Shown here: positions 11,715-61,420 of the stretch, in pieces
Numbering within the stretch: position 1 is the first letter of the stretch
How the letters are laid out: each line of letters opens with the position of its first letter
Origin: a virus
Lineage: Duplodnaviria > Caudoviricetes
Virus record (IMG/VR): IMGVR_UViG_3300031760_000024
Coordinates: 22,827-86,826 of that record
Direction: 5' to 3' (one strand)
Length of the DNA stretch: 64,000 nt
Made by a program: the position numbers and the translations under genes
Notes under the pieces: model-generated
What the model saw: only the letters and a program-made list of their open reading frames with translations
What the model was told of the DNA's origin: nothing
The model's database searches: none

Positions 11715-12947
11715 CTAATCTACCAAATATCCTTCACTGTCGAAGGTATATTCTTTACCGTCAATAATTACGGTCTCGTTCTTCGCATACCATCCGGTAT
11801 CATCTCCGAACCACCATTTCTTGGTGCCGTCCACTTCTTTCTCATGCCAAGCACCTACGTGCAGGTAAGTGAACTTGCCAGTCTTTCCGATCCAGTAGTA
11901 GCCACGTTTCTCGCCACCACCAACCGGGAAGTCATGAATCCACTCACTTTCAACCATGTCGCCATTCTTGTGGAAGTAATATGTAGCCTTACCTACCTCT
12001 TTCCAACCAACAGCCATAGAACCGTCGTTGTTGAGATAGTACCACTCGCCTTTCCACTTCTGCCAACCAGTCTGCATCAGACCGCTTCCTTTGAAGAAGT
12101 ACCACTTGTCATCAATGTACTGCCATCCAGTAACCATAGCGCCTGACTCATCCATGTAGTACCACTTGTTTCCTTCGTGTACCCATCCAGTCTTCATGAC
12201 GCCATCCGTGTCAAAGAAGTACCATTTCTTTTTGATCTTCTTCCATCCGGTAACGTATTCACCGTTAACGTAGAAGTACCAATTACCGTTCTCGTATACC
12301 CAGCCAGCTTTCTGGAGCAGAGCAGCAACGTCGTTGCGTACATCTTCCATGTTCTTGCCGATAATCTTCGGAAACCAATCGTATATATCGTCGTGGCCGC
12401 TCCCCAGGCCGAGCAAATAGGCATCCCAATGGCATAAGATCGTAGGTACTTTAATACCTTTGTAATCAATAAAACCGTGCGGATCTATGTCATATCTTTC
12501 ACACAGCCATGCGGTCATCTTAACAGCTTCATCGTATGCTTTCTGCGCATATTCGGGATCCTTCTTACTATCCTCTGCGATCTCCCACTGAATGTGCGTA
12601 TCATTCAGCGAACCTTTCTTTCCAGCGCCACATCCCCAAGGACGCCAATCCCACGGGCCAGTCTGGGTTGTGCCGACAGAACCATCATCAAAACAGCCAA
12701 CCCAAGAATTAAGTCCTGCCTGTTTGGTGGTATGATTCCAATCGTTTCCATACTTGTTTTTACCAAGTTTAGCAATCTTTTCGTCATAGTTAGCATCCCC
12801 GGCATACGGCTGTACATATCTCTTGAGCCACTTGTTATCTGCTCCCGTATCATGCCAGAGAATACCCAACGGCTTAAATGGTCTGGTCTTGCCATACCAA
12901 GTAGAGTGCGTCATAAAGCACTCAAACGGTTTCCAATCTAAAGCCAT
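11715..12947 (-). CDS. Endolysin: Amidase_2-type N-acetylmuramoyl-L-alanine amidase with choline-binding-type repeats
   Basis: ILWHDTG, HIQWEIAE, LCHWD..GHDD; C-terminal TGWQ..KWYYF repeats. Confidence 0.9.
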   Translation of the reverse strand: MALDWKPFECFMTHSTWYGKTRPFKPLGILWHDTGADNKWLKRYVQPYAGDANYDEKIAKLGKNKYGNDWNHTTKQAGLNSWVGCFDDGSVGTTQTGPWDWRPWGCGAGKKGSLNDTHIQWEIAEDSKKDPEYAQKAYDEAVKMTAWLCERYDIDPHGFIDYKGIKVPTILCHWDAYLLGLGSGHDDIYDWFPKIIGKNMEDVRNDVAALLQKAGWVYENGNWYFYVNGEYVTGWKKIKKKWYFFDTDGVMKTGWVHEGNKWYYMDESGAMVTGWQYIDDKWYFFKGSGLMQTGWQKWKGEWYYLNNDGSMAVGWKEVGKATYYFHKNGDMVESEWIHDFPVGGGEKRGYYWIGKTGKFTYLHVGAWHEKEVDGTKKWWFGDDTGWYAKNETVIIDGKEYTFDSEGYLVD

Positions 12948-38199: not shown

Positions 38200-38476
38200 C
38201 GTTTTGTTACTTTTTGCTTTCGCAAAAGGGTAGGTCATTTCTGCCTACCTCTGCAATTTTATTAGACTTGCGTCTATCGATTATATTTGCAGACCAGACC
38301 ATACCTTTATCCTATAAAGGATACCCCCGTATGTCTAATCGTTGCCTTTTAGACTGTGGTCGTTGCGGGACGTGTTTTACATAACACATTACCCTCATGA
38401 TTATCCATCTCTGGACTTCCCATGATTTGAGAGGGTGTTTACCTATACGTTGCCATATAGGGGGCCTATTTTGTTA
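38200..38476 (-). ncRNA. ORF-less group I intron (277 nt) in the tape measure gene
   Basis: Exon 1 ends ...AGGCU and the intron ends ...AAAACG; joining gives WSRL|GYSSNE in frame. Core elements AUCAUGGGAA/AUCAUGAG (P4), GCAACGACCA and AAGGUAUGGUC (P7), CCCCC/GGGGG (P3), P9 hairpins. Confidence 0.88.
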
Positions 38477-41400
38477 AGCCTAGACCAAGCCGCTGCTTGG
38501 CTTATAATCTCACTTGTCGTAACACCAAGTTGTTTTGCCACATTAGAAGAGTTCTTATAAAACTCTTCTAATTCATAATTATTCATAGTAGTGGTTTTTC
38601 TTAAATCAACAAGTTGAGTATCAAGGTCTTTAATTGTTGATATAGCACTTCTTATAAATCCAACGATTCTGTAGAAACTTGCAAACGAGCCTAAATATGC
38701 TAATAATGATTTCCATCGCTTTGAAAGCATTTGGGTCATGGTTTGACCAGCCATACCAGCCCGTTCTGCTTCTCCCTTAATTTGCGCAAGTCTTTGCCAA
38801 ATCTTTGTTAGGGCTTTTTCAGCCTCTTTAGAATCAGCAGGAAGATTATTCAACGACGCTTCGAATGAACGCAATTCGTCACCATATACTTTATTAATCT
38901 GACCCTTATTTTGCATTTCACCAATACTCTTCAATAAAGACGCACGGCGATTTGCAATTTTTGTTTCCGTCTTTAATCTTTTTTCCTCTGCGCGTTCTTC
39001 TTCTTTTGCAGCCTCTTCAACTTTTTCCTGTTCTTTTTTCTTCGCATTAGCTACGCGTCGAGCAGATTCTTCAGCCGCCTTTGCTTGCGCATCCCTTAAT
39101 TTTTGAGTAGAATCAGCAGTACGTTCTTCAACTTTTTTTAACTGTTCTTCTGTTAAGGATACCTTTTTCAACTCATTTAAATAAGTTTCTAATTCTCGTA
39201 CTTTTTTCTGACGATCAGTAATACGGGAATCTCTTGGATTATCAGTATGATTATATAATGATTCTAATTCTGCATTAATCTTATTAATCGAATTAATTGT
39301 TTTTACTCTTGCATCAATGTTTTGCTGTTCTGTAGTTTTAGAAGCAATCGCCTCTTTAGCTTCATTAATTTGTTTCGTTGTAGCTTTTAACACAGTCGCA
39401 ACATCTTTTAATGAGTCTCCTTGTTTTGCCAGTTCATTGATAGCATTTAAGAATGAATTATCATTAATTGGCTCGTTCAGTATTTTCTTTATTGATTCTA
39501 AATTTTTAACAAGATTAGTAATCCTGTCCTTATCATTGTCAGCTAAATTGCTAATAATTTTATTCAGGTATTTAAACGCATCAGCCTCTCCACTTAATCC
39601 TTTTAATGATTCTACAATTGAAGATAGAACCTCTTTATTCGCAGAAACAAACTCGCGCTTACCTTCTGCAGCATCCTTTGATTTAGAAGCAACATCTTCC
39701 ATTTTATCTGCTTCTTTTTGTTCTGCATCGGCTGCTTGATTAGCAGAATCTACAACGGGAACGGCTTGATTTTGAGCATTCATTTGTTGCAATGTTTCAT
39801 ATGATGACTGCATTTCTTGTATAATTGAATCAATGCCTCCACCATTCATAACAGAGCTTTTCCAATCCTCAATAGGATTTGGTTTATTTTTCAAATACTC
39901 ATAAATATTACGAATTGCGTCTTGAGTTGTACCGGCGTCTTTAATAACATCACCAAATTGTTCTCTTAATTGTTGTAAAAATATAAGTGCATCCGGTTTA
40001 TCAAATGTTCCCATTTGAAAATTTTCAAGACCAATCACCCCACGAACCTTGGCAAATTCATCACCCGGAAACTCTTGACGATCCTTTTTATCAAAACCAA
40101 AACGCGAATGAGAAACAAAATCACGTACCTTTTGCCATGTATCATATTGTCCCTTTTGCAATTTGGTAATGCCGCTAGATCCTGATAAAATGTCTATAAT
40201 ATGTGCATATGAAGAAGTTTCAAGAGTTGTTCCATTTGATAACTCCTTGAATAAACTTTTTACCTCTTGTTTTAATTTTTCGAATACATCCTTTGAAGCT
40301 CCAAAGTTATCAATAATTTTATTTGCAACTTCACCAGACACATACTCTAGTCTTCGTTCTTCTTCTTCTAATTGTTCTATGGTTTTATCTGTTTTTGTAA
40401 CTGAATCAGCAGTAGTACCAGTAAACGATGATGATATATTTGTAATCGCTGTTTCTATTGTGGTTAATTTTTGCGCGATTGCGTCTAAAGACCCGCCAAA
40501 CAAATCTTTCTTTGAAATATCAGACAAAAGTTGTTTGATTTCTTTGAGTTGTTCAACTACTCCTTTGAGTTTGATTTGATTATCACTAATTTCAACTACA
40601 TCAGTTTTTCTTGTTTGCGTAATTTTACGCATATTAGCAAGATATGTACTTTCAGCATTTCCATTTGGTAATTTTAATCCTGATAAATCCATCATAAAAT
40701 CAGGATATGCGGCTGCATCCGCTAATATTTTAAAGAAATCAATGAGTCTATATATTTTATCTTCTACTGAACCTAATTGTTGTACGTTAATAGGAGAGTA
40801 TCGATCAATTAATGTCTGCATACCACCCGGCAAATTCAAAACATTATTTATAGATGCGAACAATAAATCTTCATTGCCAGCTCTTCCAACAACTCCTTCA
40901 TACATTTGTTGATATTTTGTATAGACGCCTCTTTGATAATTATTAACTTTATTTGCCATTTGCATGGCATCAACATTAGATATACTATTAATACGTTGAT
41001 TTGTTTCATCTAACTTCTTTAAAAGAGTATCTATACTTTGTATGATACTAATGAATCCATTGTTATCATCAACTGAACCTAATGTATTTTTAATTGATTC
41101 TAAATGTTGAGCAATTTCAGACAACATGGTATTAAACTGAGAAACCACTGATGGATCAAATACCCCATTAGCGCCGCCAGCTATACCATTGACAGAAGAA
41201 GAATTCGCTTTTTCTAAATCATGTTTTGTGTCAACTAACTCTTGTTGCGCCTCAGCGTCTCTACGAGCAGCTTCACCCTCATTATCAAATGCAGTTGTTG
41301 TTGAATTAGCAGACGTTTCAACATCATTATTTGCTTTGGCTGTACCACTTAAGTTTTCACGCGTACTTGCTAACTGCTGGTCAATTTCCTGTAGGGATTT

Positions 41401-47935: not shown

Positions 47936-49054
47936 CTATCTAATCAATTCCAAGATACTTCCTAGTACATTGACAACGTCTTCCAATTCATCATACGTAT
48001 TCTGATTTGACAAAGTGAACCGTACACACTCATGTGCTTCTGCCTCTGTTAATCCATACGCTAATGCCACATGACTGGCTTTATCAGAATCAGTAGAGCA
48101 TGCTGATCCTGTCCCGATGTAAATGTTGTAATCATTTAACAGATTCATCAGTGTTAATCCGTTCACACCGGGAAAGCGGATATAGATATTGTTCGGCAAC
48201 CGGTTCTCTTTTGTACCAACCAGTACACCGCCAAGTTTCTCTAACTCCGCTAATAAAAAGCTAGTTTTATGTGCGAGTGATTCCACATCATAGTCGATCA
48301 ACTCAAATGCTTCTCCGAGACTTGCAATCAGTGGGGTAGCAGGAGTACCGCCTATTAACCCTTGTTCTCCAAAGATAATAGGAGATAGTTCGTTCGCAAG
48401 TATTTGACGTGCGTAAAATAAACCGCTGCCCTTTAAACCGCCAATCTTTTGTCCAGACATAGAAAGTGCATCAATACCCATCTCATCCACATTAATAGGG
48501 TAGTACGGTATATATTGTGTAGCATCACAGTGAAAAAAAGCCTTGTCATGCCGATGCACTATTTCAGATATCTGCTTCACGGGTTGTATTATCCCTGTCT
48601 CTGAATTCGCCATCTGGACACTGACAAGGCAATATTTCCCCACATCCTTACACTGTTGTACAAGGTTCTCTAACTGTTCCAAATCTACAATTCCACTTTT
48701 ATCCACGGCTACCAAACGCTTCGAATACGGCAGCCAGTTATATAATTCCATAATGTCGTTGTGCTCCACGGCGGAAGTCACAAATAAAGTCTCCGGATGT
48801 TTACGGATAAATCCCTGTATCAACACATTGTTTGACATCGTAGCACCAGATGTAAAATATATTTCGTCTTGATCACAAGACAATAACTCGCTGATTTTGC
48901 TATGCGTGTGAGACAGTACAGCATGTGCTTGCAATCCCATCGTATGCTGTGAACTGGGATTACCATACATGCCCTCGGCAACTTCTACGAACTTTGCCAA
49001 TACTCTCGGATTCACTGGCGTAGAAGCGGCGTTATCCAAGTATATTGGTTTCAT
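47936..49054 (-). CDS. iscS: Cysteine desulfurase (IscS/NifS family, PLP-dependent)
   Basis: YLDNAASTP, FTSGAT, VEH, HCDATQ, SGQK (PLP Lys), GTP, GSACS (catalytic Cys), RFTLS. Confidence 0.9.
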   Translation of the reverse strand: MKPIYLDNAASTPVNPRVLAKFVEVAEGMYGNPSSQHTMGLQAHAVLSHTHSKISELLSCDQDEIYFTSGATMSNNVLIQGFIRKHPETLFVTSAVEHNDIMELYNWLPYSKRLVAVDKSGIVDLEQLENLVQQCKDVGKYCLVSVQMANSETGIIQPVKQISEIVHRHDKAFFHCDATQYIPYYPINVDEMGIDALSMSGQKIGGLKGSGLFYARQILANELSPIIFGEQGLIGGTPATPLIASLGEAFELIDYDVESLAHKTSFLLAELEKLGGVLVGTKENRLPNNIYIRFPGVNGLTLMNLLNDYNIYIGTGSACSTDSDKASHVALAYGLTEAEAHECVRFTLSNQNTYDELEDVVNVLGSILELIR

Positions 49055-49731: not shown

Positions 49732-49805
49732 AGCTCTCGGTGAGACTTGAACTCACAATCTACTGATTACAGGTCAGCCGCTCTACCAAATTGAGCCACA
49801 AGAGC
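49732..49805 (-). tRNA. tRNA-Thr(UGU), C at position 33, no encoded CCA
   Basis: GCTCTTG/CGAGAGC acceptor stem, GCTC/GAGC D-stem, GCTGA-CCTGTAA-TCAGT anticodon arm, GTGAG-TTCAAGT-CTCAC T-arm. Confidence 0.85.
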
Positions 49806-53241: not shown

Positions 53242-53262
53242 CAATGTTACTTTAACAGTTCG

Positions 53263-54267
53263 TTAAGCTGTTAAAGAATTATTTATATTATAATAATTAC
53301 AATAACGATCATACTTTCTTTTAAGATATATTTCTGCATCTTTATATAACCAATCCAAAAATATTTTACATACATTTCTTCCACTAATAGTAAAAACTTT
53401 TGTAATTCCATTATGGCAAGATGCATCGTAAACAAAAGAATTTAATTTTAATTTTTCCTTACATATATCTTTTAATTTTTGACAAAAAGAATTGGTTGCG
53501 GTAATGGTAACAACTATAGGTTTATTATCTTTACTTTTAATTTGTTGATATATACTTCCATCACCATCAAAAACACCACGTATATAATGAGATATTAAAT
53601 CTTCGTCAAGCCATTCTGGAAACCCAATTACAAGGCTTTTATTTGGAACAATACCTTTCTCCGCTAATTGCTCACACATATGTATGCTAAACATTTGCAA
53701 CTCATAAAGATTTTCATAATCATACCCAAAAGTATGCTTATTAGAATTGTCTATAAAACGCAATGGTTTTTCGCTTCCAATTTCTAATCTAATTTTTTCT
53801 AATAAATCTTTATCAGACTCTTGCAACCCGATAGATACAGTTCCTTTATCCATTTTATTACATCCATCAGCGTGTAACAGCCCTAATATATAAGCTTTAT
53901 TTGGAGCGTCAATTATATCAAAATAATTTTCATTTAATTGGTATTTTCGATGAAATCTTTTAGCATCTCGATGAATACCATGTTCTTCTAAAACTTTTAA
54001 TATAACATGATGACCACAATTATATTTCTTTGCTATCACAGTACAAGAACTTCCCTCTTGATATAATCTAACTATTTCATCTTTTTGTTCTTGGGTTGCA
54101 TATCTAATGTCAAATCCATGTTTAACATTATGAGTTTTTCTAAGAAGCTCATATATTACGGTATCACAAACCCCATATTCTTCTTTTAAATCTTTAACCA
54201 TCTCACCATTAAGGTATCTTTGTATAACTTCGTTTTGTTGATCGTTTGTTAATTTTGGTTTATTCAT
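53263..54267 (-). CDS. Intron-encoded double-motif LAGLIDADG endonuclease with N-terminal HTH repeats
   Basis: AYILGLLHADG and HYIRGVFDGDG; start MNKPK at 54267 with GGAGG SD. Confidence 0.88.
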   Translation of the reverse strand: MNKPKLTNDQQNEVIQRYLNGEMVKDLKEEYGVCDTVIYELLRKTHNVKHGFDIRYATQEQKDEIVRLYQEGSSCTVIAKKYNCGHHVILKVLEEHGIHRDAKRFHRKYQLNENYFDIIDAPNKAYILGLLHADGCNKMDKGTVSIGLQESDKDLLEKIRLEIGSEKPLRFIDNSNKHTFGYDYENLYELQMFSIHMCEQLAEKGIVPNKSLVIGFPEWLDEDLISHYIRGVFDGDGSIYQQIKSKDNKPIVVTITATNSFCQKLKDICKEKLKLNSFVYDASCHNGITKVFTISGRNVCKIFLDWLYKDAEIYLKRKYDRYCNYYNINNSLTA

Positions 54268-54275
54268 TGTATATT

Positions 54276-54370
54276 CCTCCGAAAAATAATCAATATAAAA
54301 AAGACAGTAATCTTCGCATTCGGAGTACGAAGAAAGGGGAGCTACCCCATGTCCTGTCTTTGTTATCAAA
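54276..54370 (-). ncRNA. Structured leader RNA, copy A (three-way junction plus SD pseudoknot)
   Basis: P1 AAAGACAG/CUGUCUUU; P2 GGGG-UAGCU-CCCC; P3 8 bp with loop CUCCGAA complementary to UUCGGAG over the SD. Confidence 0.7.
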
Positions 54371-54615
54371 TCAATATAAATAATTTTTCTGTACCTCTCG
54401 GCACAGTCCAGATCATATCAACACCATATCTATTGACTTAGGTGGTTCCCATTACCTCACTTGAGGACTTGATCGTTGAACCTTCCCTTTCGGGCTTGGC
54501 TGCTGATTGTCTCTATCTATTAGATTGTTACACTTCGGTACTAATAGCCTAACAAGAGTTCCCAGCAATTAGAGAACTTTCGACATAAGGTTTCCCTTAT
54601 GAAGCGCATACATTT

Positions 54616-60025: not shown

Positions 60026-61309
60026 TCAATTATTAATTTTAAATTCTTCTTTAATTCGCCAATAATATCCCCGATATTTTCTGTTATTATTCATCGCATT
60101 AATTAATTGGTGATGTACATCTGTTGTATTAAAATAACGAGCAACACTTTTCCCACTAGGAAATTCCTTAACTACATTCATATTATCATCGATCATTTCA
60201 TACGTTTTATCTATTCTGTTTAATTTTCTCACTAACGGTTGATTGTATGGTGTAATTAAATATCCTTTACAACTACCACCTCTTTTTAGCACCTTTGCTA
60301 TTTCACCGCTTGGACATTTTAAAAAATCTTCCGCTTCTTTATAACAAGAGCATCGAGTAATATACCAACCTTGTAAGTCATAAATTTTGACTGCTCGTAA
60401 CTGTCTAGACATTGGATATTTATTAAAATCATCACCTTCATAGCGTAATACATATCTCTTATACTTTAATTTCTTACCAATAACATTATCTCTAAGTTCT
60501 TCAGTAGATATACCAATATAATGACATGCGTCAATAAAATCATCATATGTATTTAATAATTCACCAAAGGCATTATAAACACATATACGTCGACCATCCC
60601 ACCAAGAACTTCTATCCAATTTACGTTGTTTCTTAATTTCTTTTGGCATTGCTTTGCTTACATAAGGTTTTTTAATACGTTCTTTTTTTGGATGTTCTTT
60701 TTCCCATTTTTCCCAATATATACGAGATTTTTCATATCGATTTTTGATACCAGTTTCATAATCTGGAGCTATTGGATCATCATCTTTATATGCCCAAACA
60801 AAACCAGCAGCAGTATAATAATAATGGTGACATACAGCCCATATCGTTGCATTGTCAATATTGTTGTCTTTTGCAGCATTCATTATTGAATCGTATTCTT
60901 GTATTGGGTTTAAATCTTTATCATACTTAATCACATGACGGCCACTGACATGTTTATTATCTCCGCCAGCTTCTGTATTATATCCATTACACAACGGATC
61001 ATATATACAAGTATGATATTTAGATATATATTGTTTTTCTAATTCATTTAATTGTTTAATTAATTCATCTTTATTTACAGAAGTTATTTTTTCAATTTCT
61101 TCTATATGAAATTGATCTCTGCCATAACATCTCATTGCATTGTATAATATTGATTTTCCTTTATAATCAGAAATACATGCTGTTTTATGACCATGCCAAC
61201 GTTCTTTAATAGTACTATATGTTTGACCAATATATAGCTTATCATTTACATTATTCCAGATCTTATAAATAAAACCTTCCCACATGCCAGTTTCTTTGTT
61301 ATATGCCAT
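60026..61309 (-). CDS. Free-standing GIY-YIG homing endonuclease with NUMOD1-like repeats
   Basis: GFIYKIWNNVNDKLYIGQT, ERWHGH, ELEKQYI, GYN; repeated (K/V)YD..G....Y.S..A modules; start at 61309 or 61315. Confidence 0.88.
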   Translation of the reverse strand: MAYNKETGMWEGFIYKIWNNVNDKLYIGQTYSTIKERWHGHKTACISDYKGKSILYNAMRCYGRDQFHIEEIEKITSVNKDELIKQLNELEKQYISKYHTCIYDPLCNGYNTEAGGDNKHVSGRHVIKYDKDLNPIQEYDSIMNAAKDNNIDNATIWAVCHHYYYTAAGFVWAYKDDDPIAPDYETGIKNRYEKSRIYWEKWEKEHPKKERIKKPYVSKAMPKEIKKQRKLDRSSWWDGRRICVYNAFGELLNTYDDFIDACHYIGISTEELRDNVIGKKLKYKRYVLRYEGDDFNKYPMSRQLRAVKIYDLQGWYITRCSCYKEAEDFLKCPSGEIAKVLKRGGSCKGYLITPYNQPLVRKLNRIDKTYEMIDDNMNVVKEFPSGKSVARYFNTTDVHHQLINAMNNNRKYRGYYWRIKEEFKINN

Positions 61310-61316
61310 AATCATT

Positions 61317-61420
61317 CCTCGTTTCTCCTCGTTCTAAATAATAAAAGACAAGGACGCGGCGAACGAGGTTACCGCATTATTATGGGTAGCTACTCCCATA
61401 ACTCCTTGTCTTGTTATTAA
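61317..61420 (-). ncRNA. Structured leader RNA, copy B (three-way junction plus SD pseudoknot)
   Basis: P1 AAGACAAGGA/UCCUUGUCUU; P2 UUAUGGG-AGUAGCUA-CCCAUAA; P3 GCGG/CCGC with loop CCUCGUUC complementary to GAACGAGG at the SD. Confidence 0.7.

Follow-up and report, generated by a model that had tools for sequence, protein, structure and literature searches.

In the preQ1-II, preQ1-III and SAM-II riboswitches, a loop pairs with the Shine–Dalgarno (SD) sequence as a pseudoknot. The int-alpA motif (RF02996 in Rfam), which is said to go back to Weinberg and colleagues in 2017, is an orphan for which we found no functional study in the literature searched. The nuclease genes of T-even phages, such as those for I-TevI, I-TevII, I-TevIII, segB and Aeh1 mobE, are preceded by hairpins that sequester the ribosome-binding site (RBS), and in T4 the loss of the I-TevI hairpin reduces td splicing, the ORF running into the intron structure (PMC2988022). 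Loop–loop contacts of a GACG tetraloop are known from MuLV dimers (PMC5874298).

The leader RNA described here, copy A, is located on the minus strand in the late gene block of a gut-type phage. The window, that is, the whole stretch of 64 000 nt that was analysed, is part of an 86.8-kb linear viral record. Judging by its capsid protein, to which large Bacillus, Lactococcus, Staphylococcus and Clostridioides phages have distant relatives, a Firmicute is the most likely host. The same block contains a tRNA gene (49732-49805, minus strand) and a cysteine-desulfurase-like ORF (47936-49054, minus strand). A whole-window Rfam scan at the gathering threshold returned a single tRNA and missed both group I introns, which were detected by narrow Rfam scans of sub-regions. 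One of these introns harbours copy A, a location that the preliminary description of the element, made from the sequence alone, had omitted. Its features are as follows:

53242-54615, minus strand: group I intron of 1374 nt, hosted by a gene of the virion head-tail region
53263-54267, minus strand: gene for a 334-aa HTH and LAGLIDADG endonuclease (Pfam LAGLIDADG_3, HTH_7; phrog_4645)
54373-54385, minus strand: 5' strand of P9.1, 13 nt that exactly complement the ORF end and are kept in homologues (-9.7 kcal/mol)
53250-53289, minus strand: 3' strand of P9.1 (53289-53277) and P9.2 hairpin (53276-53250), from the fold of the intron 3' domain

The catalytic core at 54628-54389 matches RF00028 with 69.1 bits (E 4.5e-17, narrow scan) and displays P/Q/R/S, a U ending the 5' exon and a terminal G. 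Excision of 54615-53242 fuses two ORFs into a single open frame of 399 aa, and splicing at these positions is predicted from the core match together with the restored frame. Within the intron, the core is followed by copy A, the nuclease gene and the 3' splice site; because leader and HTH/LAGLIDADG gene both lie between core and 3' splice site, copy A, which sits in the P9 extension, is the leader of a homing endonuclease encoded by the intron. The nuclease is ~28-30% identical to Staphylococcus phage (intron) endonucleases, and the last codons of its ORF overlap the P9.1 3' strand and P9.2, the latter including the stop codon.

Several further observations concern the introns. P7 (54389-54480, minus strand) reads GAUCA/UGAUC in place of the usual GACUA/UAGUC, with compensatory changes beside the G-binding site, and further P7 variants are present among intron homologues. 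One homologous intron (L005, also L391 2858-3200) has an intact leader and a nuclease ORF internally deleted to 68 aa, which retains the N-terminus and the P9.1-forming C-terminus; another (L135) has kept the leader and lost the SD target and the ORF start. The second, ORF-less intron core of the window (38275-38486, minus strand; RF00028, 37.7 bits, E 3.7e-8, below the cut-off) sits between two long ORFs of a putative tape-measure gene.

Copy A itself consists of the following parts:

54295-54366, minus strand: three-way-junction leader RNA copy A (P1 with AU extension, P2 and P3), from fold and covariation
54361-54354 paired with 54307-54300, minus strand: P1, with the AU extension 54366-54363/54298-54295
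54336-54348, minus strand: P2 hairpin, loop UAGCU with the self-complementary core AGCU, a putative kissing loop
54311-54333, minus strand: P3 hairpin, with the 7-nt anti-SD loop CUCCGAA at 54325-54319
54276-54283, minus strand: pseudoknot target UUCGGAG (54283-54277), overlapping the SD GGAGG (54280-54276); the AUG is at 54267
54288-54299, minus strand: right copy of a 12-bp direct repeat, comprising the U-rich linker and the P1 extension

The letters, helices and complementarity reported for copy A in the preliminary description were all found in place. The three-way junction is both the minimum free energy and the centroid structure (-24.1 kcal/mol, z -3.7, 0/200 shuffles), with the P3 loop unpaired in the predicted ensemble and the sole local hairpin over the SD being weak and GU-rich. 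It is well supported that copy A is a real cis-regulatory RNA.

Relatives were collected by pattern scans of viral and metagenome contigs, and the main sample was drawn with a pattern in which P1 alone is fixed and either loop may vary, a choice made against circularity. The fold filter was passed by 41 distinct elements, and intron core marks lie upstream of 39 of the 40 that come from other contigs. With P1 fixed in the scan patterns, the sample of the family is narrow and consists of related sequences; given this common descent, the covariation counts below are not independent events, but identical loop types do recur in distant parts of the nuclease tree. Fifteen scan matches were removed by the fold/SD filter, four of which later proved to be true members. 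A pattern scan of GTDB gave 119 matches, nearly all noise after the fold filter, with one plausible copy (L256), and a search for loci related via the GIY-YIG protein (see below) gave one distant locus.

Across the 41 elements, the P3 loop finds a complement in the downstream region of its own element, the mean run being 6.9 bp, compared with 4.4 bp when loops are swapped. For the 17 distinct P3 loops, the mean is 6.8 against 4.7 +/- 0.25 upon permutation (0 of 5000 permutations). The target starts 13-20 nt past P1, mostly at 16-19 nt (~17 nt), and always overlaps the SD. In the alignment, both sides change at 7/7 pseudoknot pairs and 6/8 P3 pairs, P2 and P3 covary and slid-structure controls are ~50% paired; as some of P2 and of the tail is shifted by one base in the MAFFT alignment, the pair counts are conservative. 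P1, which is fixed by design in the main sample, covaries at 7/7 pairs in a broader set, whose alignment was fitted to the model. Within 320 nt upstream and 200 nt downstream, the intron family shows no enrichment of another partner or parking site with which the P3 loop could pair. In copy A, the loop/target duplex amounts to -9.0 kcal/mol, close to the ~-9.5 kcal/mol of pairing with the anti-SD. Collectively, these patterns support pairing of the P3 loop with the SD region as a pseudoknot. The preliminary description had proposed such an SD-capturing pseudoknot and had named failure of the loop–SD complementarity in further homologues as grounds for abandoning it; the complementarity is maintained, and covariation backs the proposal.

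The 12-bp direct repeat (54288-54299 and 54369-54380), which the same description read as a hint that the unit is itself mobile, fared differently. The corresponding reading, a small mobile cassette bounded by a 12-bp target duplication, draws on the exact 12-mer that flanks both sides in this window and on a locus (L079) in which a P1 identical to that of copy A stands in front of a GIY-YIG gene, showing that the module moves between genes. However, 40 homologues and the second leader of the window, copy B, lack the repeat, and the longest word shared by the two flanks averages 6.6 nt for own pairs and 6.3 nt for swapped pairs, reaching 12 in this window only. The repeat is AT-rich and not above chance at one mismatch (three found, 2.1 expected), and its left copy lies mostly within the 13-nt P9.1 5' strand and is fixed by that pairing. 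We conclude that the repeat is incidental and no target-site duplication; the cassette reading is refuted as a general feature and, for this window, very improbable.

The tail of the element invites another reading, namely, that P1 and the ensuing U-run form a leaky intrinsic terminator, freeing a target-less junction RNA that acts in trans. Six or seven U's occur within 8 nt after the P1 core in 40/41 copies, and the int-alpA consensus likewise ends in a U-run and is typed as sRNA in Rfam. Yet a terminator scan returned nothing at copy A, several of the U's are paired in P1 and the uninterrupted run is just 3-4 in 15/41 copies. Moreover, a U-run terminator cannot be strong, because strong termination within the intron would remove exon 2 and the downstream virion genes. 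On this evidence, attenuation is improbable.

Leaders of this kind are not confined to introns. The second one in the window and its gene are:

61317-61420, minus strand: copy B, a divergent leader with P2 loop AGUAGCUA and targets 61334-61327 and 61323-61317
60026-61315, minus strand: free-standing gene for a GIY-YIG/NUMOD1 endonuclease, flanked by the portal gene and by a putative scaffold/protease gene of 586 aa

Copy B folds strongly (z -6.1) and its loop matches two downstream sites, in line with the recurrence previously reported ahead of the GIY-YIG gene, but it is a divergent member rather than a sequence duplicate: the narrow model gives it 13 bits, whereas a broader model, from which it had been left out, gives it 20.8 bits (E 0.05), the best score in the genome after copy A. 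In the stretch 61334-61307 (minus strand), the two SD-like targets are accompanied by AUGs at 61315 and 61309, both in frame, so that each target has an AUG at a suitable distance. Directly upstream, after the portal gene, lies a strong terminator-like hairpin of 13 bp (61459-61431, minus strand), and the copy B transcript may have its own start or depend on read-through. Identity of copy B with freshwater-2 was rejected (19.7 bits against a cut-off of 49.9). Elsewhere in the window, a hairpin at 13009-12948 (minus strand), a weak match to the leader model that has neither P2 nor P3, carries a pyrimidine-rich 3' arm that could alternatively pair with the SD of a 410-aa ORF at 12947.

Looser patterns and model searches recovered free-standing copies before GIY-YIG and HNH genes, as well as leaders ahead of DUF1376 and of an AAA-domain gene, probably in proteobacterial phages, and ahead of a KilA-N gene and a tail chaperone gene. 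The portable module posited earlier is, accordingly, upheld across LAGLIDADG, GIY-YIG and HNH contexts and reaches beyond nucleases to DUF1376, KilA-N and tail chaperone genes; the P1 shared between copy A and L079 likewise implies that it is portable between nuclease families. The int-alpA-type leaders of four loci (L285, L338, L341, L354) precede ~140-aa genes, that of L285 encoding a phage tail assembly chaperone (Pfam) and the other three being similar by eye; the int-alpA-type motif thus extends beyond selfish or regulatory genes. Several phages have two leader copies. Two of them (L391 in G004, L392 in G014) carry two intron/LAGLIDADG-type leaders ~2.4 kb apart, with different P2 palindromes in G014 (UUGCAA, AGCU) and the same one in G004. 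In large gut phages, matches to the Rfam 'drum' RNA at the cut-off (L046 2732-2828, L019 6570-6666, L385 1132-1228) precede leader copies by ~300-370 nt.

Neither copy A nor copy B matches any Rfam family; for int-alpA, neither gives a hit at E<=10, and the genome has no int-alpA match. Nevertheless, a relative with the same P2 loop (L034) passes the int-alpA gathering cut-off of 35.8 bits with 36.1 bits. The earlier remark that the element was not recognized as a named motif, accordingly, holds for the two copies by score but overstates the novelty, since same-loop relatives pass the int-alpA cut-off. A literature search by motif letters returned primers only, and the leader family may be among the unnamed candidates of Weinberg 2017 or of the 2023 viral candidate set.

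With the P2 loop left free, its cores are AGCU, GGCC, UGCA and GAUC, with AAUU and CAUG found in second copies, and each core differs from another by a double change that preserves self-complementarity. A palindrome of at least 4 nt is present in 8/9 distinct P2 loops, where 2.2 are expected, the sole exception in the family, UUGCUA (L090), being halfway between two palindromes. Among int-alpA-type elements, again with loops free, 9/15 distinct P2 loops are palindromic (2.2 expected); some (UCGCU, UCGCA) have no 4-nt palindrome, and the commonest non-palindromic loop is GACG. The signature of a kissing loop, self-complementarity kept through compensatory change, is evident here. Loop type does not cluster on the nuclease protein tree (9 changes against 9.4 upon shuffling), and two near-identical nucleases (L077, L093) have different types, which suggests that loops are exchanged or switch repeatedly within a small set of allowed states.

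This variation bears directly on the proposal that a protein or ligand recognizes the UAGCU loop: because the loop varies by double substitutions that keep its self-complementarity, a fixed UAGCU binding site is unsupported. A switch that reads either the P2 loop or the conserved junction would account for the retention of the junction bases GACA and UUA even where P1 has changed, and for AGCU being the commonest loop from Firmicute to proteobacterial phages. However, at least five loop cores occur in one family and differ even within one genome (L030, L043); furthermore, the downstream proteins are unrelated, which makes a single autogenous binder unlikely. Such a switch appears to us a poor prospect.

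We consider pairing between leader molecules, tip to tip through their P2 loops, to be the simplest account of the palindromes and, by a little, a probable one. The main competitor is a static repressor in which the pseudoknot brakes translation and P2 is merely structural, its palindromes stemming from template switching at inverted repeats, which could generate them neutrally, or from a compact two-base loop after a bulge. On paper, indeed, the brake requires no P2 pairing; the one-step double changes and their scatter over the tree fit template switching; and the self-duplexes of some P2 loops are weak (-0.8 to -3.5 kcal/mol), that of copy A comprising no more than 4 bp (free duplex, -3.5 kcal/mol; -4.5 for A with B). 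A swapped-strand P2 duplex, by comparison, is favourable (-22.9 vs 2 x -7.0 kcal/mol). What speaks against the static repressor is that palindromes remain near chance in P3 loops of the same RNAs (3/17, 2.5 expected) and in terminator-like loops (11/45), that the one or two bases left unpaired on the 5' side of the palindrome are retained rather than corrected away and that inner and outer loop positions both co-vary (GC to AU twice). We regard the static repressor as rather unlikely.

Taken as a whole, the data are probably best explained if copy A acts in cis as a brake on translation of the homing endonuclease, and a braking effect as such is likely. In the scheme we favour, the leader forms the three-way junction, as folding and covariation show, and the P3 loop, on the evidence of covariation, pairs with 7 nt spanning the SD ~17 nt past P1. 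The resulting pseudoknot would compete with 16S rRNA and, in all likelihood, keep translation low. This would limit a toxic nuclease and, by keeping ribosomes off P9.1/P9.2, with which the last codons of the ORF overlap, allow splicing of the virion gene. The P2 loop would then, with a probability slightly above even, pair with the same loop on another leader, be it a copy A or copy B with its AGCU core, so that the brake would depend on the amount of leader RNA. More speculatively, the likelier direction is that more RNA means tighter repression, which cannot be read from the sequence of the one-site copy A; in two-site relatives, a leader's own loop would park on the proximal site and the SD would be covered by that of a partner in tip-to-tip contact. 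That int-alpA-type leaders including copy A are RNA-only dosage sensors, in which docked tip loops decide whether the SD is covered, is a tentative extension that we rate as somewhat less than probable. If true, a message would regulate its own translation by counting its own copies, and interchangeable palindromes would give the different selfish genes of one phage orthogonal addresses; no report of translational control by such leader dimerization was found in the literature searched.

The scheme offers a concrete and cheaply testable mechanism for an orphan Rfam motif that heads nuclease, DUF1376, KilA-N and tail chaperone genes in many phages, and it suggests a way in which splicing of an essential virion gene may escape jamming by the intron nuclease without a T4-type hairpin. 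Should the palindromic loop indeed pair two messages, it would constitute bacterial translational control by mRNA dimerization, as well as a compact, reprogrammable part for synthetic biology in which anti-SD and docking loops vary independently.

Compared with known systems, copy A resembles the T-even leaders in that an RNA structure, here recognized by covariation, would hide the RBS of an intron-encoded or free-standing nuclease and in that the ORF's 3' terminus overlaps intron structure, here P9.1/P9.2, so that repression would also protect splicing. The T-even elements, however, are simple stem-loops with the RBS in the 3' arm, whereas copy A combines a junction, a loop–SD pseudoknot and a second conserved loop. 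T-even hairpins are released via an embedded late promoter, which yields a transcript without the inhibitory strand; at copy A, no sigma-70 site was found that could serve as a release promoter, and a -10-like hexamer, present in 24/41 copies at 3-12 nt ahead of P1, falls on the P9.1 strand. SD-capturing riboswitches differ in another way: the leader has no Rfam riboswitch match or link to a metabolic gene, its loops vary and its downstream genes are unrelated. The retroviral dimer-initiation loops (HIV-1 DIS, MuLV GACG tetraloops) are likewise hairpin loops with palindromes of 4-6 nt, often with flanking unpaired purines (PMC5874298), and GACG tetraloops recur in int-alpA-type relatives; but the retroviral loops serve genome packaging, whereas the pairing inferred here concerns a phage mRNA leader, no homology being implied.

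The closest counterpart is int-alpA. Both families have a three-way junction followed by a U-run, a P3 loop complementary to the downstream RBS region (visible for int-alpA in the Rfam consensus, with a target site of at least 5 bp in 30/36 int-alpA-type copies vs 27% upon swapping), self-complementary P2 loops, often of the GUAGCU type as in L034, L262, L303, L327 and copies A and B, and a phage and mobile-gene context. They differ in the junction bases, GACAU/UU/UUA in the copy A family vs UAG/GAAAAG/CU in int-alpA, the consensus int-alpA junction CCUAG, CGAAAAG, CCUG being absent from the family alignment (GACA, UU, UUA), and in P3, which has 8 bp as opposed to 4-5. Furthermore, the copy A family, unlike int-alpA, resides inside a group I intron in AT-rich Firmicute phages and has mostly one target site (34/41), whereas int-alpA usually has two; two tandem targets occur in 19/36 int-alpA-type copies vs 4% upon swapping, and also in copy B and several free-standing copies. 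No profile bridge to proteobacterial int-alpA was obtained with models R1 and R2, which miss L009, L034 and L040 and give L013 18.9 bits only. By its sequence features, copy A would function like int-alpA, yet it is a non-member by score; it is a new AT-rich, intron-borne, one-site variant of this orphan motif.
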